NCBI GenBank assembly: GCA_902776735.1
Contig: CACYRE010000001.1
Location: forward strand, 1 to 46,394
Source: an uncultured Erysipelotrichaceae bacterium
GTDB lineage: Bacteria; Bacillota_I; Bacilli_A; RF39; UBA660
Length of the DNA: 46,394 nt
Direction of reading: 5' to 3'
This document shows positions 17,624 through 22,454 of the stretch, in pieces. Made by a program: the position numbers and the translations under genes. Under the pieces are notes generated by a model, which was not told where the DNA came from, searched no databases, and saw only the letters and a program-made list of their open reading frames with translations. The first letter of the stretch is position 1. Every line of letters starts with the position of its first letter.

Positions 17624-19087
17624 TTATTTTTTATATTTAATATTTTTATCACCTAATAATTTATTTTCAGTATAATTATTAACTAACTCTTTTAAATCTA
17701 TTCCTAAACTATCTTTTGCCACATTAATAATTTTATCAATTTTTTGAGTATTCTCTTCAACTAATTTAGTAGACTGGTCTCCATACATAGTTATGTTATT
17801 AATATTAGAAAGTGGGGCTGAAACTTCTTTTGCAACTTCTGGTAATATTTTACAAATCATTTCTACAATAGAAGCTTCTTTCATTTTAGCTTGTGCTTCT
17901 GCTTTCTTTTCTATTCCTTTTGCTTCAGCAATTCCTTTAGCTTCTATACCAGCAGCTTCAGCCTCTAATTTAGCTCTAATACCATCTGCTTCAGCTAATG
18001 ATTTAGCTTTTATTGCTTCAGCTTCTAGCATTGCAGCTTCTTTATTTGCTTTTGCAAGTTCTATCTTAGCTTCAGCTTCTTGTTTTGCAGTTTCTAATGC
18101 AGCTTCAGCATTTTTTATAGTAACTTGTTTTTGTGCTTGTGCTTCTGTTTCTGCTTTATATCTTTCAGCATCAGCTTGTTTTCTTACTTCTGCATCCAAT
18201 TGTTTTTCTTTTAAATTTACTTGTCTTTCTTTTAGTTCAGTTTCTTTTTCAGTTTTTACAATCTCAGCTAAAACTGTGTTTTCATTAATTAATTTTTGTC
18301 TTTCTGCTTTTTGTATTTCATAAACCGTATCTGCTTCAGCTTTCTTTTTATCCTGTTCAATTTGATACTCATATTGTTTTAAAGCTAAATCCTTATTTTG
18401 TTTTGCTATTTCAGCGTCGGCTTGTGCCTTTGCTTCATTACCTTCTTTTGCAGCATTTGCTTGCGCTACTTGTACGTCTCTATCTGCTTGAGCTTTTGCT
18501 ATTTTAGCATCTTTTTGAATTTTAGATAAATTATCTATTCCTAAATCATTAATAGCGTTATTCTCATCAGTACAAGATTGAACATTTAAATTTACTATTT
18601 CTAAACCTATATTATTAATATCATCTTTTGCATTTTCTTGAATTTTTTGAGAGAATAATTGTTTATTATTAACTAATTCTTTCAAATTCATTTGTCCTAT
18701 AATCTCTCTCATATTCCCTTCAAGAACTTCTCTTACATTTCTAGCAATATAATCTGAATCTTGATTTAAAAAATGTCTTGCTGCTACTTTTATTAAATCA
18801 GAATTATTTGGAATTCTAACATTTGCAACAGCATCAACATCAACATTAATAAAATCTGTTGTTGGAACTCTCGATGTCTTAATGTCTATTTGAATTAATT
18901 CTAATGTTAATCTATCTACCCTTTCAAAAAATGGTATTCTTAAAGAAGCTCTACCTATAATCACCTTAGGTTCTTTCTTTAATCCAGATATTAAAAATGC
19001 CATATCTGGTGGACATTTTACATAACTTAAAAATAAAAATATTATTAATAATAAAATAATAATTCCTATAATTATTGCTGTAATCAT
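17624..19087 (-). CDS. Flotillin/SPFH-domain membrane protein
   Basis: N-terminal TM helix; VPTTDFINVDVDAVA, EVLEGNMREIIG, GLEIVNLNVQ; AEA-rich flotillin coiled coil. Confidence 0.92.
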   Translation of the reverse strand: MITAIIIGIIILLLIIFLFLSYVKCPPDMAFLISGLKKEPKVIIGRASLRIPFFERVDRLTLELIQIDIKTSRVPTTDFINVDVDAVANVRIPNNSDLIKVAARHFLNQDSDYIARNVREVLEGNMREIIGQMNLKELVNNKQLFSQKIQENAKDDINNIGLEIVNLNVQSCTDENNAINDLGIDNLSKIQKDAKIAKAQADRDVQVAQANAAKEGNEAKAQADAEIAKQNKDLALKQYEYQIEQDKKKAEADTVYEIQKAERQKLINENTVLAEIVKTEKETELKERQVNLKEKQLDAEVRKQADAERYKAETEAQAQKQVTIKNAEAALETAKQEAEAKIELAKANKEAAMLEAEAIKAKSLAEADGIRAKLEAEAAGIEAKGIAEAKGIEKKAEAQAKMKEASIVEMICKILPEVAKEVSAPLSNINNITMYGDQSTKLVEENTQKIDKIINVAKDSLGIDLKELVNNYTENKLLGDKNIKYKK

Positions 19088-19100
19088 TTCTATAAACCCC

Positions 19101-19355
19101 CTATTCTACTATTTTCCAGTCTTCAGATAACATATCTGCTTGACTTGCTAGCCATCCAACTTGAACTCCTGATGTCCCAACAAATGCGATAGCTTTATTT
19201 CCCATTGTATCATGCTCAGCATTAATAATATCATTATTTGTATTCTTATAACTGATAAATTCTGCAAGTTCTATATATTGATTTTTACCATTCCATCCTT
19301 CTCTTTGAACTCGTTTACCATTTTTTAATGCTTCTAAAGCTTCTCCAAAATTCAT
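19101..19355 (-). CDS. DUF2829 protein (Tad2-like signalling-nucleotide sponge)
   Basis: MNFGEALEALKNGKRV.REGWNGK...GWLASQADMLSEDW family signature. Confidence 0.85.
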   Translation of the reverse strand: MNFGEALEALKNGKRVQREGWNGKNQYIELAEFISYKNTNNDIINAEHDTMGNKAIAFVGTSGVQVGWLASQADMLSEDWKIVE

Positions 19356-19375
19356 ATATAACCTCCTATAATAAA

Positions 19376-20560
19376 AATTGACCGTCTATTCCGGTCTGTC
19401 AATGTAGATTCTCCCAAACCTATACTAAAATAGATAAGGTTAGTAGTTCTGTGTACTTCTTCCTTTCGACCATCCATTTTGTAAATATGTGTCTAAATCT
19501 TCAGGTAGAATAAGTTTATTGGTTATTAAATTATTAACCCACATTTTACCTTTATTCCATGGAACTTTATGATACATAGGATTATTTTCGCCTTTTAAAG
19601 CTTTAGATAATTTAAATTTAGTTTCTTCGGAAATAGACCTACCTTTTTTTGATTTAGATATTTTAACTTTAGTTTCTTTAGAAAGAGACCTATCTTTTTT
19701 ATATCTGTCTTTTTTAGGAATGCTTATTTCGCCTAAAGCATATCTAGACTTTAAAGTATTAGAAATTTTATTTTTAGTTTCTTTAGATATATTTTTACCT
19801 TTATTCCAAGGAATATAATTTTTAGTTCGTATTTTTGCAGCTTTAGACATTCTTTCTTTAGTTTCCTCTGAAAATTGTCTATTTTTTAAAGATTTTGATA
19901 ATTTAAATTTATGTTCATTAGATAAAGCTTTACATTTTTTACCTTTATTCCAAGGAATTTGTCCTTTATGAGATAAAGATAATCTTTCTTTTGTTTCTAA
20001 TGAATAACCATTTTCTTTTACAGCTTTATTATATCCAGACCAGCCTTCATTTTCTCCACCATAAGAATTATTATAATATTTATCACTTCTTACAGCATTA
20101 GCAGCTTCTATCCATTTTATTTCAGCTTTATCTAAGTCTTCTTGATTCGTGTTTACTTCTTCTAAAATTCTAACTTTAAAATTATCTTTTCCATATTTAT
20201 TTAAAGCTTTCTTAAACTTAATGCCTGAGCCATAATAATTATTATCAAATTTATCAGACTTATGTTTACCTATATATTTCTTATTATTTATTAAATTAGT
20301 AGTTTCATATATGTAACCATACGTAGTTATAGTACCTCCTATAATTATATAATTTAGCTACATTTTCAGCTCCATCAAAGTTCCCGTGTACACCTGAGGT
20401 ATAGTTATTGTTAGTATTTCCTATACAGTACATCAAAGACTAACTGCACAAACTGGCCCAGGGACCGTTATATCGGAGTCAATTAATACGTTTTTTCGTC
20501 TATCAATTTCTAATAGCTAGCCTCACTATCTTACTTTATCAAGATATATCCGAACCCCGG
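19376..20560 (-). ncRNA. Candidate structured ncRNA (about 215-nt 5' part 20345-20560 plus about 60-nt 3' part 19376-19439) interrupted by a GIY-YIG ORF
   Basis: GC-enriched multi-hairpin sequence starting right after the tRNA-Cys CCA; AATGTAG upstream of the ORF complements CTACATT downstream; terminal GACCG-GAATAGA-CGGTC hairpin. Family not recognised. Confidence 0.45.
19440..20330 (-). CDS. GIY-YIG (Seg-like) homing endonuclease with NUMOD3-type repeats, 296 aa, probable ATA start
   Basis: The frame is open well beyond the track ORF: ITTYGYIYETTNLINNKKYIGKH...YYGSG...KYGKDNF...E..WI...YYN...GG, then S.ETK.KIS/PWNKG repeats. RBS AGGAGG sits 4 nt before ATA at 20330. Confidence 0.85.
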   Translation of the reverse strand: MTTYGYIYETTNLINNKKYIGKHKSDKFDNNYYGSGIKFKKALNKYGKDNFKVRILEEVNTNQEDLDKAEIKWIEAANAVRSDKYYNNSYGGENEGWSGYNKAVKENGYSLETKERLSLSHKGQIPWNKGKKCKALSNEHKFKLSKSLKNRQFSEETKERMSKAAKIRTKNYIPWNKGKNISKETKNKISNTLKSRYALGEISIPKKDRYKKDRSLSKETKVKISKSKKGRSISEETKFKLSKALKGENNPMYHKVPWNKGKMWVNNLITNKLILPEDLDTYLQNGWSKGRSTQNY

Positions 20561-20636
20561 TGGAGGGATATATTGGATTTGAACCAATGATAAGAGTTTT
20601 GCAGACTCTGGCCTTAACCATCTTGGCTAATATCCC
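20561..20636 (-). tRNA. tRNA-Cys(GCA), CCA encoded
   Basis: GGGATAT/ATATCCC acceptor; AGAGT-CTGCAAA-ACTCT anticodon arm; TTCAAAT T-loop; U73 discriminator. Confidence 0.93.
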
Positions 20637-21376
20637 ATCTTTTGAGTTTCATTAAATTTAATAACATTTTGTATAAACTCATTATTATATTGATTAGCTA
20701 TAGATTGTACATCTTTGTTTAAACAATGACTATCCCAATAAGGTTTATCTTTATATACAAAAGTATGTGATGGATTTACTCTTGGGTCTAATATAAATAA
20801 TTCTCTTAATTCTTCATAGTTAATATTCTCTTTTTTACATATATTATAGTATGCTTGACAAAAACTAACTTTAGTTGCTAAAAATGAATTTTCCATAAAT
20901 TTAACTAATTCAGCTAATTTAGGTTCTACTATTCTAAAAGTATGTCTTCCATCATAACACGGTAACAAAGCTTGAATTATTTTAGTACAATCTTCTTTAT
21001 TTCCACCTAATATAGTAAAATCAAAAGAATAATTATTACAATGTTTAGTTGCTCCATAATATTCTGGACTAAATACAATATGTTTATTTAACTCTTTATT
21101 TAATTTATCAACCGTTCCTACTGGACATGTTGATTTTATACAATAAATATCACAATCATTTTCTAAAATAGCATTTTTAACTTCTATAATATTAACTAGT
21201 CCACCCATTAAAGGAGTATCTACACAAATAAAACCTATATCATATTTAATATTTCTCTTTGTATTTACTTCTGGTTTATATTTATCTATTATATCTGGAT
21301 TTATGTCTTTTAATTCTTCAGCTAAATTATGACCTACAACCCCATATCCAATAATTAATATATTATTCAATATCAT
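20627..21376 (-). CDS. UDP-glucose/GDP-mannose dehydrogenase family protein (short form)
   Basis: IIGYGVVG, ICVDTP, IKSTCPVGT, FSPEY, AELVKFMENSFLATKVSF, DPRV, SHCLNKD (catalytic Cys retained). Confidence 0.85.
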   Translation of the reverse strand: MILNNILIIGYGVVGHNLAEELKDINPDIIDKYKPEVNTKRNIKYDIGFICVDTPLMGGLVNIIEVKNAILENDCDIYCIKSTCPVGTVDKLNKELNKHIVFSPEYYGATKHCNNYSFDFTILGGNKEDCTKIIQALLPCYDGRHTFRIVEPKLAELVKFMENSFLATKVSFCQAYYNICKKENINYEELRELFILDPRVNPSHTFVYKDKPYWDSHCLNKDVQSIANQYNNEFIQNVIKFNETQKMGY

Positions 21377-21396
21377 ACTCCTAAATTAAATTATGT

Positions 21397-21472
21397 ACAG
21401 GATTTTAATTTTTTAATTCAAGGGAGTCTCCTGTGTTTATACTCAACCTTTAGTTGGTCGCTATCCAACATC
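21397..21472 (-). ncRNA. Hairpin plus H-type pseudoknot element in the tRNA-Ala 3' trailer
   Basis: GTTGG/CCAAC hairpin; AAGGttGAGT/ACTCCCTT stem interleaved with ACAGGA/TCCTGT. Confidence 0.35.
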
Positions 21473-21548
21473 TGGTGGAATCTATCAGAATCGAACTGAT
21501 ACCTTCTGCTTGCAAAGCAGATGTGCTAACCATTATCACTAAGACCCC
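21473..21548 (-). tRNA. tRNA-Ala(TGC), CCA encoded
   Basis: GGGGTCT/AGATTCC acceptor with G3:U70; TCTGC-TTTGCAA-GCAGA anticodon arm; TTCGATT T-loop. Confidence 0.93.
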
Positions 21549-21553
21549 ATATA

Positions 21554-21629
21554 ATATCTAGGAGGAACCAAAGCAAACGTTATACTTTAGTTTTAGGTTA
21601 AAGTCGTAACCATATATTAACCTAGACAT
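21554..21629 (-). ncRNA. Candidate 76-nt three-stem structured RNA
   Basis: ATGTCTAGG/CCTAGATAT closing stem enclosing GGTTA/TAACC and AACTAAAGTA/TGCTTTGGTT hairpins. Confidence 0.35.
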
Positions 21630-21639
21630 CATTTTGACT

Positions 21640-21722
21640 ATCTCAGTTTACAGATTCGAACTGCTTCCTCCTTAGTTAACTTTCGTGGTTTTGACATACC
21701 CTAATTATTAACATGACTGGGA
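21640..21722 (-). ncRNA. tRNA-like element (acceptor plus T-arm, non-canonical centre)
   Basis: TCCCAGT/ACTGAGA acceptor-like stem and GCAG-TTCGAAT-CTGT T-arm; no canonical D or anticodon arm. Confidence 0.45.
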
Positions 21723-21730
21723 AATATAAA

Positions 21731-21834
21731 GCTCGAAGACGGGATTTGAACCCGTGATATTCTATATTAACTAGTATTATAGACGCCTCTCCTGATTATT
21801 TGTACACATAATTCATTATTCTGGCTTCTTCGAG
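21731..21834 (-). tRNA. Atypical tRNA-like gene with expanded D-loop and 11-nt anticodon loop
   Basis: Perfect CTCGAAG/CTTCGAG acceptor; GCC/GGC D-stem around about 35 nt; TCTATA/TATAGA stem with loop ATACTAGTTAA; ACGGG-TTCAAAT-CCCGT T-arm; no CCA. Confidence 0.6.
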
Positions 21835-21845
21835 AAAATTAAATA

Positions 21846-22454
21846 CTATTTTATTCCTGAATTTCCAAAACCAGTTGCTCCACGATTTGTATTGAAATAT
21901 TCTTCTTTAGTTATATTATGCTCTTTCAAGTAATCTTCTAAAGGAATATATTTAAATGCATAAGTCCTATAAACATTAACTGAACAAACTCTATCACCTT
22001 TGTGTACTTCAATATCATTATCACCATTATTTTGAATTAAAGCATTAATTATTCCTCTATAATTATTATCTACCCAAGGTTCTCCAACATCAATAGGAGA
22101 CCCATAAGTTTTTCCTAAATAATTTCCACCTCTATTTACAGAATGAACTCCAAATCCTTTTGGTATTCCCATTCCTATACCTAAAGAAACTTTCTCAGCT
22201 GTATGCGCTTTAATTATTTTATCTTCATTTAAATAAGCGTCATATCCAATATCACCTTCTTTTTTTCTTTCAGGTAATTTAGCGTCTTCAGTTTCTTTCC
22301 AAACTACAACTGGTACTTCTAATTCTTCTTCTAGATTCTCTTTAATTTTTTTCTCAAGAGTTTCTGTTCTTCCTAATAAAGTTTTATATTTATCATTTAA
22401 AGAATGAAATTCTGATTCTAGTTCTTTAATTTTTCTCTGTACGTCAGCTTCCAT
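21846..22454 (-). CDS. dut: Trimeric dUTPase-like protein with N-terminal coiled-coil extension
   Basis: IGYDA, VDNNYRG, KGDRVC and motif 5 RGATGFGNSG. Confidence 0.8.
   Translation of the reverse strand: MEADVQRKIKELESEFHSLNDKYKTLLGRTETLEKKIKENLEEELEVPVVVWKETEDAKLPERKKEGDIGYDAYLNEDKIIKAHTAEKVSLGIGMGIPKGFGVHSVNRGGNYLGKTYGSPIDVGEPWVDNNYRGIINALIQNNGDNDIEVHKGDRVCSVNVYRTYAFKYIPLEDYLKEHNITKEEYFNTNRGATGFGNSGIK

Follow-up and report, generated by a model that had tools for sequence, protein, structure and literature searches.

The locus behind the tRNA-Cys gene of this window (the whole stretch of DNA analysed, 46,394 nucleotides of a contig from an uncultured Erysipelotrichaceae bacterium) raises the question of how a block of apparently folded, non-coding sequence comes to be split by the reading frame of an endonuclease, and whether its two parts form one RNA. 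The answer favoured here, with a probability of about 0.7, is a single-copy structured non-coding RNA gene in the tRNA array of large ruminant-gut phages (a small clade), which received an inserted endonuclease gene and is not an intron.

The whole feature is encoded on the minus strand, with coordinates numbered as in an earlier, sequence-only reading of this DNA. That reading placed the start of a structured RNA directly after the CCA of tRNA-Cys, which is borne out by the confirmed tRNA at 20561-20636, and described the next ~215 nt as GC-enriched, which they are (0.34-0.36 versus 0.20-0.28 in the ORF and neighbouring genes). The non-coding RNA gene is bipartite: a 107-nt 5' domain ending in N-CCA precedes a 3' module that starts at 20453 and terminates in a hairpin and U-tract (19380-19396). 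Its features, from 5' to 3' of the RNA, are:

20561..20636, minus strand: tRNA-Cys (GCA) with encoded CCA (ARAGORN; Rfam tRNA, 62.7 bits); the RNA element begins at the next base
20454..20560, minus strand: 5' domain, 107 nt, from homologues and alignment
20428..20449, minus strand: hairpin P1 (GUGCA...UGUAC)
20439-20444, minus strand: P1 loop GUUAGU, 5' strand of a loop-loop pairing
20399..20426, minus strand: hairpin PB (GUAUAG...CUAUAC)
20410-20415, minus strand: PB loop ACUAAC, partner of the P1 loop
20376..20398, minus strand: conserved core CUCAGG-UGUAC-ACGGGAACUUUG, with invariant columns in alignments A3 and A4
20388-20393, minus strand: pseudoknot strand PK5' GUGUAC, within the core
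20358..20364, minus strand: 5' strand of stem S, AAUGUAG, closing the ORF-holding loop and paired with 19401-19407
19440..19461, minus strand: conserved RNA motif AAGAAG-GUACAC-AGAACUACUAA, kept in ORF-less alleles and found also in L099, L228 and others
19451-19456, minus strand: pseudoknot strand PK3' GUACAC, within the AAGAAG motif
19414..19439, minus strand: putative hairpin H (CCUUAUCUA...UAGGUUUGG) in the loop of S, from direct reading of the sequence
19401..19407, minus strand: 3' strand of stem S, CUACAUU, paired with 20358..20364
19371..19396, minus strand: 3' hairpin T (GACCG-GAAUAGA-CGGUC) followed by AAUUUUUAUU, also listed by a terminator scan

Nine distinct homologous sequences from eight lineages, the window included, were found in related uncultured phages and metagenome contigs. 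The element occurs once per phage record in all five records searched and once in the window's own assembly. Without the ORF the 3' module measures about 155-205 nt, and the total RNA size ranges across the family from about 155 to 313 nt. The three bases preceding the module are CCA in 8/8 lineages and the module opens with G, while the unit that carries the CCA is of four kinds: the 5' domain, tRNA-Trp, tRNA-Thr or a tRNA-like stretch that was not called. Gaps between other neighbouring tRNAs of these arrays measure 4-78 nt, and all tRNAs called beside the element have an encoded CCA end. Genes on its 3' side vary by lineage (Tad2-like, SPFH, tRNA or other ORF). A tRNA follows the module after 8 nt in L092 and after ~40 nt in L228, and in five of the eight lineages a protein gene with a strong Shine-Dalgarno (SD) sequence lies ~15-40 nt past it.

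Some neighbouring features deserve mention in their own right. The tRNA upstream of the element in L099 was called as a stop-codon tRNA (UUA anticodon), tRNA-like remnants are found near the element of the window at 21549-21848, and L009 and L010 feature a different conserved element behind tRNA-Cys whose alignment to the present one is unconvincing.

Searches of wider collections agree with the initial impression that no known RNA family is involved. Rfam 15 gave no match to any family except tRNA, with or without the ORF, at E values up to 10 for the window region and up to 5 for six loci with ORF-less relatives. In isolated phage genomes, blastn with the whole region matched the endonuclease ORF only, in two records, and the 5' part, compared by BLAST with 60 related genomes, yielded only short chance matches, the best (E 1.5e-5) covering 40 AT-rich nt. 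Model R1 of the RNA had no match among 150 further genomes from the family of the host, nor among ten phage records of greater distance that have the SPFH gene in common, seven of them at least 90% complete. A pattern scan of metagenomes returned at least 118 stretches, nearly all due to chance, and among the nhmmer matches listed only copies of known contigs, together with L228 and L211, were retained. A stricter two-block pattern recovered eight viral stretches (seven already known plus L246, a chance coding match) and three stretches in genomes, all chance coding matches; the 39 viral stretches matching a pattern for the 5' domain contained two real ones, both already known contigs.

The case for one folded RNA comes from the comparison of these homologues. 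The module opens with two adjacent hairpins, P1 and PB, bearing complementary loops, and has an invariant core of consensus CAGG-N6-CGG(G/C)AACUUUG, whose six variable positions pair with the distant AAGAAG-N6 to form a pseudoknot across stem S. A weak model match at 19445-19486 lies over the AAGAAG motif region. Four helices covary, namely P1, PB, the long-range pseudoknot and the 3' hairpin T, with 92-100% of cells paired. All cells of the pseudoknot are paired and both sides change in three of its six pairs; the values for T are 95% and four of five. P1 (92.5% paired, 5/5 pairs changing on both sides) and PB (95.7%, 5/6) were counted on separately trimmed hairpin alignments because covariance-model realignment left three rows unfixed, and this trimming, at hairpin ends picked by complementarity, favours structure. 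In total 17 of the 22 counted pairs change both sides yet stay paired. Pseudoknot and T combined are paired at 97.7%, versus 11-41% when the partners are slid, and none of 500 shuffles reached their paired share or covariation score, although such shuffle controls overstate significance in so small a family of related sequences.

The pairing between the P1 and PB loops is supported by a cognate versus non-cognate test, in which 8 of 40320 partner permutations reached the cognate sum. Within any single sequence the complementarity of the loops is not unusual, being reached by 96-884 of 2000 shuffles, a test too weak for this pairing. Folding energies do not differ from those of shuffled sequences (z = 0.00 for the 5' part of the window, 0.10 and -0.13 for two ORF-less homologues), so that the case for structure rests on covariation.

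The stems proposed from the window sequence can be revisited in this light. GTATAG/CTATAC corresponds to PB and is strongly supported, and AATGTAG/CTACATT, postulated to pair across the ORF, is stem S, for which compensating variants occur in L099 (AGUGUGG/CCACAUU) and L228 (AAUGUGA/UCACAUU), with ACGUUG/CAACGU in L091. Hairpin H within the loop of S reads CCUUACCUA/UAGGUUUGG in L228 and CCAAAUGA/UCAUUUGG in L099. The supposed TGTAC/GTACA stem has to be redrawn: TGTAC pairs with the upstream GTGCA, while GTACA is a pseudoknot strand with its partner at the end of the ORF. An AGCT...AGCT stem is not conserved. In hairpin T the loop is conserved as GGA(R)(U)AGAC, and T is probably the 3' end or terminator of the RNA. 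Pairing of its loop with UCUC or UCUAUU segments fails in some types, as does pairing of the first four bases of the module, GUUU, with AAAC-like segments in some lineages.

The 5' domain is an optional part of the family, carried between tRNA and module by four lineages (the window, L099, L228 and L091). Its long closing stem, CCGGGGUUCGGAUAUAUC / GAUAUAACGGUCCCUGG, surrounds an interior with several branches, and G-CCA comes after it; in its four carriers the domain finishes with GCCA, ACCA, ACCA and CCCA. RNAalifold finds the closing stem in 4/4 sequences, with one-sided changes, and interior pairings have support from two lineages only. The stem CCGGGGTTCG/CGGTCCCTGG of the sequence-only reading is conserved but varies on one side at a time; CTATTA/TGATAG is plausible and partly predicted by RNAalifold, while TATCTTG/TAAGATA agrees with a by-eye reading of L091 alone (UUGCA/UGCAA) and the program pairs these bases otherwise. 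The proposal of one structured RNA stands for the two joined halves, but the first 107 nt form a separate, optional domain. Taken together, comparative analysis indicates that this is a real and conserved family of folded RNA, previously undescribed.

The sequence that splits the RNA in the window comprises:

19462..20356, minus strand: inserted homing-endonuclease cassette, 895 nt, absent from ORF-less alleles
19440..20324, minus strand: GIY-YIG/NUMOD3 reading frame, from translation, Pfam, open frame and paralogue comparison
20322-20324, minus strand: putative ORF start ACG (ATG in a paralogue)
20335-20340, minus strand: SD sequence AGGAGG ahead of the ORF

The frame is open for 305 codons, from an in-frame TAG (20358-20360) to TAA (19440-19442). 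Like Seg-type endonucleases, its product combines a GIY-YIG catalytic domain with a DNA-binding NUMOD module; NUMOD3 scores 75.6 bits against a Pfam cut-off of 20.4, and GIY-YIG (18.9 bits) and SegE_GIY-YIG (19.3 bits) are both under their cut-offs. The amino terminus aligns with the M-x-(G)IY starts of the paralogue and of relatives, and 129 of 147 candidate viral stretches proved to be tblastn relatives. No ATG, GTG or TTG start is present near the GIY motif, so expression of the endonuclease may be weak or the gene already defunct. The last seven codons and the stop of the ORF coincide with the conserved RNA motif at 19440..19461.

The ORF is absent from 8/8 homologues found elsewhere, where the halves of the RNA are contiguous, and the window alone carries it. 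A contig from run X9 passes from 19461 to 20357 through GGTCTCT (AGAGACC on the RNA strand), so that the ORF-less allele has 7 nt where the window has 895 nt. In run X4, loose ends at both boundaries read into the same ORF-less junction at a depth of ~43. The metagenome contigs with this junction have flanks near-identical to the window, with about five differences per piece, and a contig from run X5 crosses the upstream insertion boundary (20087-20521, two differences). The gene is thus present and absent at the same site in near-identical genomes (X9, X4 junction), as in the Seg type of homing endonuclease. These alleles indicate that the GIY-YIG/NUMOD3 ORF is a secondary insertion in the RNA gene. 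The suspicion that the ORF is an invader, looped out of a single RNA, is thereby upheld, with covariation of the closing stem as further support. Contigs from the RNA run X19 map only to 19745-20098, inside the ORF, and to 20875-21014; they miss the RNA element, and X19 is therefore uninformative on its expression.

A sequence of events can be proposed from this organization. The RNA would be co-transcribed with the tRNAs. RNase P would probably release the 5' domain, since its known substrate types include long helices with NCCA behind them. A cut exactly at CCA|G would free the module, hairpin T would stabilise or terminate the transcript, and the released RNA would act as a stable RNA. Since the module always starts right after CCA, it may take part in processing the 3' ends of tRNAs. 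In this phage the free-standing GIY-YIG/NUMOD3 gene, of the same kind as T4 segB, took the place of 7 nt of poorly conserved linker in the S loop; it spared every helix and drew its final codons and stop from sequence that the RNA already had. With all helices intact, stem S can still join the RNA halves, as for ORFs lodged in intron loops.

The constant CCA|G junction would also suit a module that cleaves itself there as a ribozyme, or that serves a dedicated nuclease as its cis element, and so matures the 3' end of the upstream tRNA or tRNA-like unit; its function would then be like that of the HDV-like theta ribozymes of gut phages, although the fold is unrelated. Its G directly after CCA in 8/8 lineages, behind four kinds of unit, stands out from the 4-78 nt that separate other tRNA neighbours, and a compact pseudoknotted fold at +1 would impede exonuclease trimming, which suggests that a precise endonucleolytic cut is needed. 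Precedent exists in the theta ribozymes, for which processing of 3' trailers has been proposed; the same account reports that only 4.5% of the tRNAs linked to them encode CCA (PMC10879173), while here every called neighbour tRNA does. The Rfam searches, within the E limits given above, revealed no HDV, hatchet, glmS or other ribozyme, the helices found differ from the nested double pseudoknot of HDV-like ribozymes, and pairing of the first four bases is inconsistent among lineages. Such a processing element is therefore regarded as unlikely. Its fullest version, a new class of catalytic RNA or nuclease recruiter cutting at CCA|G, with a fold able to accommodate a selfish gene of ~0.9 kb in one of its peripheral loops, is more doubtful; if true, the task proposed for theta ribozymes would have been solved a second time, by an unrelated structure and on CCA-encoding tRNAs. 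A cis-regulatory role, with the module as riboswitch or attenuator leader of the downstream gene and T as its terminator, would account for the score of T and its U-tract as an intrinsic terminator in the window and for the SD-bearing genes close behind the module in five lineages. It is improbable given that the downstream gene changes (Tad2-like, SPFH or other ORF) and is a tRNA in L092 and L228, that T combines a loop conserved in sequence with a covarying stem, beyond what a terminator requires, and that the U-tract is weak or absent in L092 and the L091 type.

A group I intron or its relic, with the ORF in a peripheral loop, is suggested by the covarying stem that closes the ORF loop, as in these introns, and by the crossing of pseudoknot and stem S in the manner of P3 and P7. 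The sequence-only reading drew the same comparison, which holds as an analogy for the placement of the ORF and goes no further; it also saw no flanking exons, and indeed none exist. The 5' flank is a complete tRNA with CCA, the 3' flank depends on the lineage, and removal of the element restores no continuous gene. Intron_gpI went unmatched whether the ORF was kept or left out (Rfam, E up to 10 for the window region, 5 for relatives), only ~22 nt (PK5' to S5') occupy the position of P4-P6, and the ORF would lie between the P7 5' and P3 3' strands, an unusual ORF site in group I introns. Absent exons, variable 3' neighbours and the missing core match largely refute this very improbable origin. 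Decayed tRNA genes or non-functional spacer, alike merely through recent divergence of the phages, could be read into the nearby tRNA-like remnants and the unremarkable folding energies, but the covariation counts contradict this and invariant core blocks persist between strongly diverged stems, which leaves the idea scarcely credible. A tmRNA or two-piece tmRNA was rejected as well (no ARAGORN call, no T-arm and no tag frame kept across types), while a T-box or purine-type riboswitch and RNase P RNA were dropped on reading the sequences.

Stable RNAs without an assigned function are a long-established feature of phage tRNA clusters, examples being T4 species 1 and 2, ROOL and GOLLD. The single-copy RNA gene favoured here would add a family of compact RNAs (~155-310 nt) in which several tertiary pairings covary and whose size suits direct biochemistry, and its CCA junction, kept in every lineage, offers a testable hypothesis on tRNA 3'-end formation in phage arrays. 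A homing-endonuclease gene would moreover reside directly within a non-coding RNA gene, with no surrounding intron. A full-text literature search retrieved no endonuclease gene inside an intron-free non-coding RNA gene, which does not prove that none is in print. The ORF-less allele co-occurs in run X4, which comes from the same study as the likely source of the window, and provides a natural experiment on the tolerance of a folded RNA to insertion and on spread within tRNA clusters.

Among known systems, ROOL RNA is about 580 nt long. ROOL and GOLLD are described as RNAs of phages or prophages that lack an assigned function and frequently lie near tRNA islands, with kissing loops found through covariation; one GOLLD RNA lies downstream of a Met-tRNA, and the 3' region of GOLLD is conserved while its 5' region is variable (PMC12286853). 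These traits recall the present element, but the Rfam covariance models of both families give no match here, where only tRNA is significant, and many GOLLD RNAs exceed 800 nt according to that description (PMC12286853), compared with about 155-313 nt. Theta ribozymes, presented as minimal HDV-like double pseudoknots within 5 nt of phage tRNA 3' ends (PMC10879173), share the position immediately 3' of gut-phage tRNAs, which the present element occupies in 8/8 lineages. It is larger than they are, follows an encoded CCA and has no HDV-family match in Rfam; covariation in it picks out two hairpins, an H-type pseudoknot and a hairpin at the 3' end, in place of a nested double pseudoknot in which P1 begins at +1 and J4/2 holds a catalytic C. 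Group I introns such as T4 td with I-TevI likewise hold a GIY-YIG ORF in the loop of a long-range stem, overlapping structural RNA, but differ in having exons, a splicing context and the group I core.

Together with ROOL and GOLLD, phage T4 offers the closest parallels, with the gene order segB, tRNA-Arg, rnaD, rnaC. The rnaD gene begins 1 nt past tRNA-Arg, and a CCA lies at or 1 nt beyond its annotated end. The products of rnaD (species 2) and rnaC (species 1) are small, stable and without an assigned function, and the present element shares with these genes the position directly behind a tRNA in a phage cluster. No kissing hairpins or long-range pseudoknot are known in rnaC or rnaD. Neither sequence nor model similarity links them to the element, and the best R1 match in the T4 region (11.4 bits) lies outside both. 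The same cluster harbours segB, whose product SegB is reported as a GIY-YIG homing endonuclease (PMC2330249); segB is intergenic in T4, whereas the ORF described here sits inside the RNA gene itself.

The non-coding RNA gene directly behind tRNA-Cys has a conserved and covarying fold, is single-copy within a tRNA array, and occurs as an ORF-less allele that gives exact borders to the endonuclease ORF inserted in the window. All genes around the element in the window, the first 46 kb of a 124.8-kb contig, are oriented on the minus strand:

20561-20636, minus strand: tRNA-Cys(GCA), called by ARAGORN and Rfam, CCA encoded
20454-20560, minus strand: 5' domain, first 107 nt of the element
20358-20360 (in-frame TAG) to 19440-19442 (TAA), minus strand: open frame of 305 codons, by translation
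20335-20340, minus strand: SD AGGAGG, brought by the endonuclease cassette
19101-19355, minus strand: Tad2-like gene, 3' of the RNA and followed by the SPFH/flotillin gene

The GC content of the ~215 nt behind tRNA-Cys is 0.34-0.36, compared to 0.20-0.28 in the flanks, and about 65 nt of non-coding sequence separate the ORF end from the Tad2-like gene. That gene (anti-Thoeris sponge family) comes directly after the RNA both in the window and in L099, a related phage locus. The related loci L091, L093 and L094 lack it, and there the RNA borders directly on the SPFH gene. On the other side, tRNA-Cys is overlapped by the last 10 nt of a gene (20627-21376, minus strand) coding a UDP-glucose/GDP-mannose dehydrogenase-like protein of 249 aa without the C-terminal domain, a short form kept also in two related phages, L009 and L010 (247 aa, 77% identical). 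Further upstream, between a dUTPase-like gene and tRNA-Ala, ~300 nt of GC-enriched non-coding sequence (21549-21848, minus strand) contain pieces resembling tRNAs, uncalled by ARAGORN and by Rfam. One combines an 8-bp acceptor-like stem (CTCGAAGA...TCTTCGAG) with a perfect T-arm, ~70 nt lying in between, the T-arm CACGGGTTCAAATCCCGT at 21739-21756 is a weak match to the tmRNA model, and a second piece has a GCAGTTCGAATCTGT arm. A 140-nt part of this stretch is 81% conserved in L099 (2921-3059).

Homologues were searched in 17 IMG/VR loci that encode relatives of the SPFH protein. In L099 blastn aligns the 5' half of the element at 90% identity over 203 nt, and the 3' half follows only ~64 nt beyond, with no ORF between. 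L091 carries the element at 72% identity, and L093 and L094 show a trace of it. Further copies came from pattern scans and an nhmmer profile: L229 (identical to L238), L092, and two metagenome contigs, L228 and L211. The resulting nine distinct sequences from eight lineages include eight ORF-less ones, the ORF being found in the window only. Each of the five phage records searched has a single copy, as does the window's assembly. Model searches of 150 genomes from the host's family and of 10 more distant phage records that share the SPFH gene gave no copy. The RNA family has few members, and these are related to one another. The claim that it belongs to no known family holds on the window and on its ORF-less relatives: Rfam 15 gives nothing beyond two tRNAs in the whole window at gathering scores, nothing beyond tRNAs in 19200-20700 at E up to 10, and tRNAs only in six loci with ORF-less copies at E up to 5. 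A full-text literature search yielded no relevant account of this RNA or of a homing endonuclease inside a non-coding RNA gene.

The conserved 3' module starts at 20453 in the window and is composed, in order, of hairpins P1 and PB, a core, stem S, the motif AAGAAG-N6 and hairpin T. The P1 stem is GUGCA/UGUAC in the window and GUACC/GGUAC, GAGG/CCUC, GUGG/CCAC, AUACC/GGUAU or UAGC/GCUA elsewhere. PB begins one base later and corresponds to the GTATAG/CTATAC stem spotted in the sequence-only reading (GUAUAG/CUAUAC); its counterparts are GGUAAAC/GUUUGCC, GAUAAGC/GCUUAUC, CUGUAG/CUACAG, CUUCAG/CUGAAG, UCUUGG/CCAAGA or CCUACAG/CUGUAGG. In hairpin-trimmed alignments, whose trimming points were picked by complementarity and are thus biased toward structure, pairing reaches 92.5% in P1 and 95.7% in PB, with both-sided changes at 5/5 and 5/6 pairs, respectively. 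The core, CAGG-N6-CGG(G/C)AACUUUG, is nearly invariant. Its N6 pairs in every sequence with the N6 of the distant AAGAAG motif, forming a pseudoknot (GUGUAC/GUACAC in the window, then GCAUGC/GCAUGC, GUGUGC/GCACAU, GCAUAC/GUAUGC, GAGUAC/GUACUC and GUGUAU/GUACAC). Hairpin T has the loop GGA(R)(U)AGAC on a variable stem.

Pseudoknot and T were counted on the ordinary MAFFT alignment A3, free of the P1/PB trimming bias. Pairing is 100% in the pseudoknot and 95% in T, with both-sided changes at 3/6 and 4/5 pairs. Jointly they are 97.7% paired, against 11-41% when the partners are slid by 1-3 columns, and none of 500 shuffles attains the paired share or the covariation score of the real alignment. 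The P1 loop is also complementary to the PB loop over 4-7 bases at matching positions (GUUAGU/ACUAAC, CCUCAC/GUGAGG, CUGUU/AACAG, CUACU/AGUAG, CCCAC/GUGGG and others). This complementarity is unexceptional when sequences are taken singly; the summed score of cognate loop pairs is matched by just 8 of 40320 partner permutations. Stem S, read directly from the sequences without a formal count, covaries within each of three subtypes (AAUGUAG/CUACAUU, AGUGUGG/CCACAUU and AAUGUGA/UCACAUU in subtype 1; ACGUUG/CAACGU and ACCUAAG/CUUAGGU in subtypes 2 and 3). Folding energies equal those of shuffles for the 5' part of the window (z = 0.00) and are no better for two ORF-less members (z = 0.10 and -0.13); the evidence for structure is therefore comparative and not thermodynamic.

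Stem S is the pairing of AATGTAG with CTACATT across the ORF from which a single RNA with a looped-out ORF had been proposed. This proposal is supported, as the halves are contiguous, without the ORF, in all homologues found elsewhere. Logan contigs of four public runs were compared with 19000-21600. In run X9 (sheep gut, other study) one 752-nt contig joins 19461 to 20357, skipping 895 nt with GGTCTCT in place, which is AGAGACC on the RNA strand, a linker shared with L099 and L228. Run X4, from bovine gut and from the likely source's study, has a pair of long contigs (depth ~43) that stop at 19461 and 20357; beyond these points their loose ends continue into the junction seen in X9. The upstream insertion boundary is spanned by a 435-nt contig of run X5 (20087-20521, 2 differences). 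Together these contigs define the cassette as 19462-20356, and the endonuclease ORF is an insertion. The cassette falls in the module's least conserved linker, flanked by the 5' strand of S and the AAGAAG-GUACAC motif, and leaves all RNA helices intact; the last seven codons and stop of the ORF (19440-19461) are the RNA's own conserved sequence.

Three NUMOD3 motifs (75.6 bits) are recognised in the ORF product, whose GIY-YIG domain stays below threshold (18.9 bits, cut-off 22.6). Ten bases past the SD stands ACG (20322-20324), where a paralogue in the same phage has ATG, its gene starting ATG-TAC-GGA-TAT-ATT-TAT; other relatives begin one or two codons ahead of the (G)IY motif. The endonuclease may have lost its start recently or may initiate poorly. 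The paralogue, a second GIY-YIG gene with a normal ATG start, lies outside the window (contig positions 82116-82382, minus strand) and is 47% identical in the N-terminal domain. A different conserved element of ~110 nt follows tRNA-Cys in L009 (1482-2232) and L010 (1460-1567), with a hairpin AGAGATG...CATCTCT and a stem ATGAGTAGG...CCTACTCAT. L009 alone carries there an extra 115 nt and an ORF for a 173-aa HNH_3/NUMOD4 endonuclease, a second example of how homing endonucleases colonise these arrays.

The 5' domain is found only in the window, L099, L228 and L091. RNAalifold keeps its long closing stem in 4/4 sequences, with one-sided changes only, and the interior is uncertain because only two lineages are represented. 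The domain ends in GCCA, ACCA, ACCA and CCCA, a variable base plus CCA that reads exactly as behind a tRNA acceptor stem. The third pair of the closing stem (20458-20460 with 20558-20560, minus strand) is G.U in the window, L099 and L228 and G-C in L091, and the 'discriminator' position is A or G in the first three. The G.U pair resembles G3.U70, the alanine identity element, and is not conserved.

Behind the 5' domain the module opens with GUUUGU or GUUCGU. Where this domain is missing, the module follows the CCA of tRNA-Trp (L092, L093, L094) or tRNA-Thr (L211), or, in L229, an uncalled 118-nt tRNA-like stretch ending in ACCA, so that CCA directly precedes the module in 8/8 lineages. Other neighbours in these tRNA arrays are spaced by 4-78 nt. 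On the 3' side, tRNA-Glu begins 8 nt past hairpin T in L092 and tRNA-Arg follows the element in L228. CCA before the module and tRNAs after it identify the RNA as a tRNA-array member. The L229 stretch (727-844) has acceptor and T-arm features and a long mid insertion, and is called by neither ARAGORN nor Rfam. The homologue of the window tRNA-Cys in L099 (3264-3334, 78% identical) is called tRNA-Stop with anticodon UUA by ARAGORN; it may have decayed or may act as an ochre suppressor.

The RNA is probably co-transcribed with the tRNAs. Its 5' domain might be released by RNase P, since a long helix with NCCA is a known substrate type of this enzyme, and the module by a precise cut at CCA|G. The CCA-module junction is kept with zero spacing, and exonucleases would be kept from trimming the tRNA by a tightly folded RNA at +1, so that an exact endonucleolytic cut would be required. 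Self-cleavage of the RNA is the most interesting route to this cut and an unlikely one. Hairpin T with its U-tract, listed as terminator-like in a terminator scan, may protect or terminate the transcript, and the released product would be a stable RNA acting on some partner.

A group I intron does not account for the element. As the sequence-only reading had noted, flanking exons and a clear group I signature are missing: the 5' flank is a finished tRNA, the 3' flanking gene differs between lineages, Intron_gpI gives no match and there is no space for P4-P6. HDV-like theta ribozymes likewise lie directly behind gut-phage tRNAs but are minimal double pseudoknots and just 4.5% of their tRNAs encode CCA (PMC10879173); no HDV-family model of Rfam matches the element. 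ROOL and GOLLD, whose Rfam models do not match it either, share with it a phage context near tRNA islands, a conserved 3' and variable 5' region, and kissing loops identified through covariation (PMC12286853).

In locus layout, phage T4 comes closest. A model search of the T4 region revealed no homology to rnaC or rnaD, and the full-text search added nothing on the T4 stable RNAs. The gene order there is segB, tRNA-Arg, rnaD and rnaC, segB being a GIY-YIG homing endonuclease (PMC2330249); rnaD begins 1 nt after tRNA-Arg, and a CCA lies at its annotated end or 1 nt beyond.
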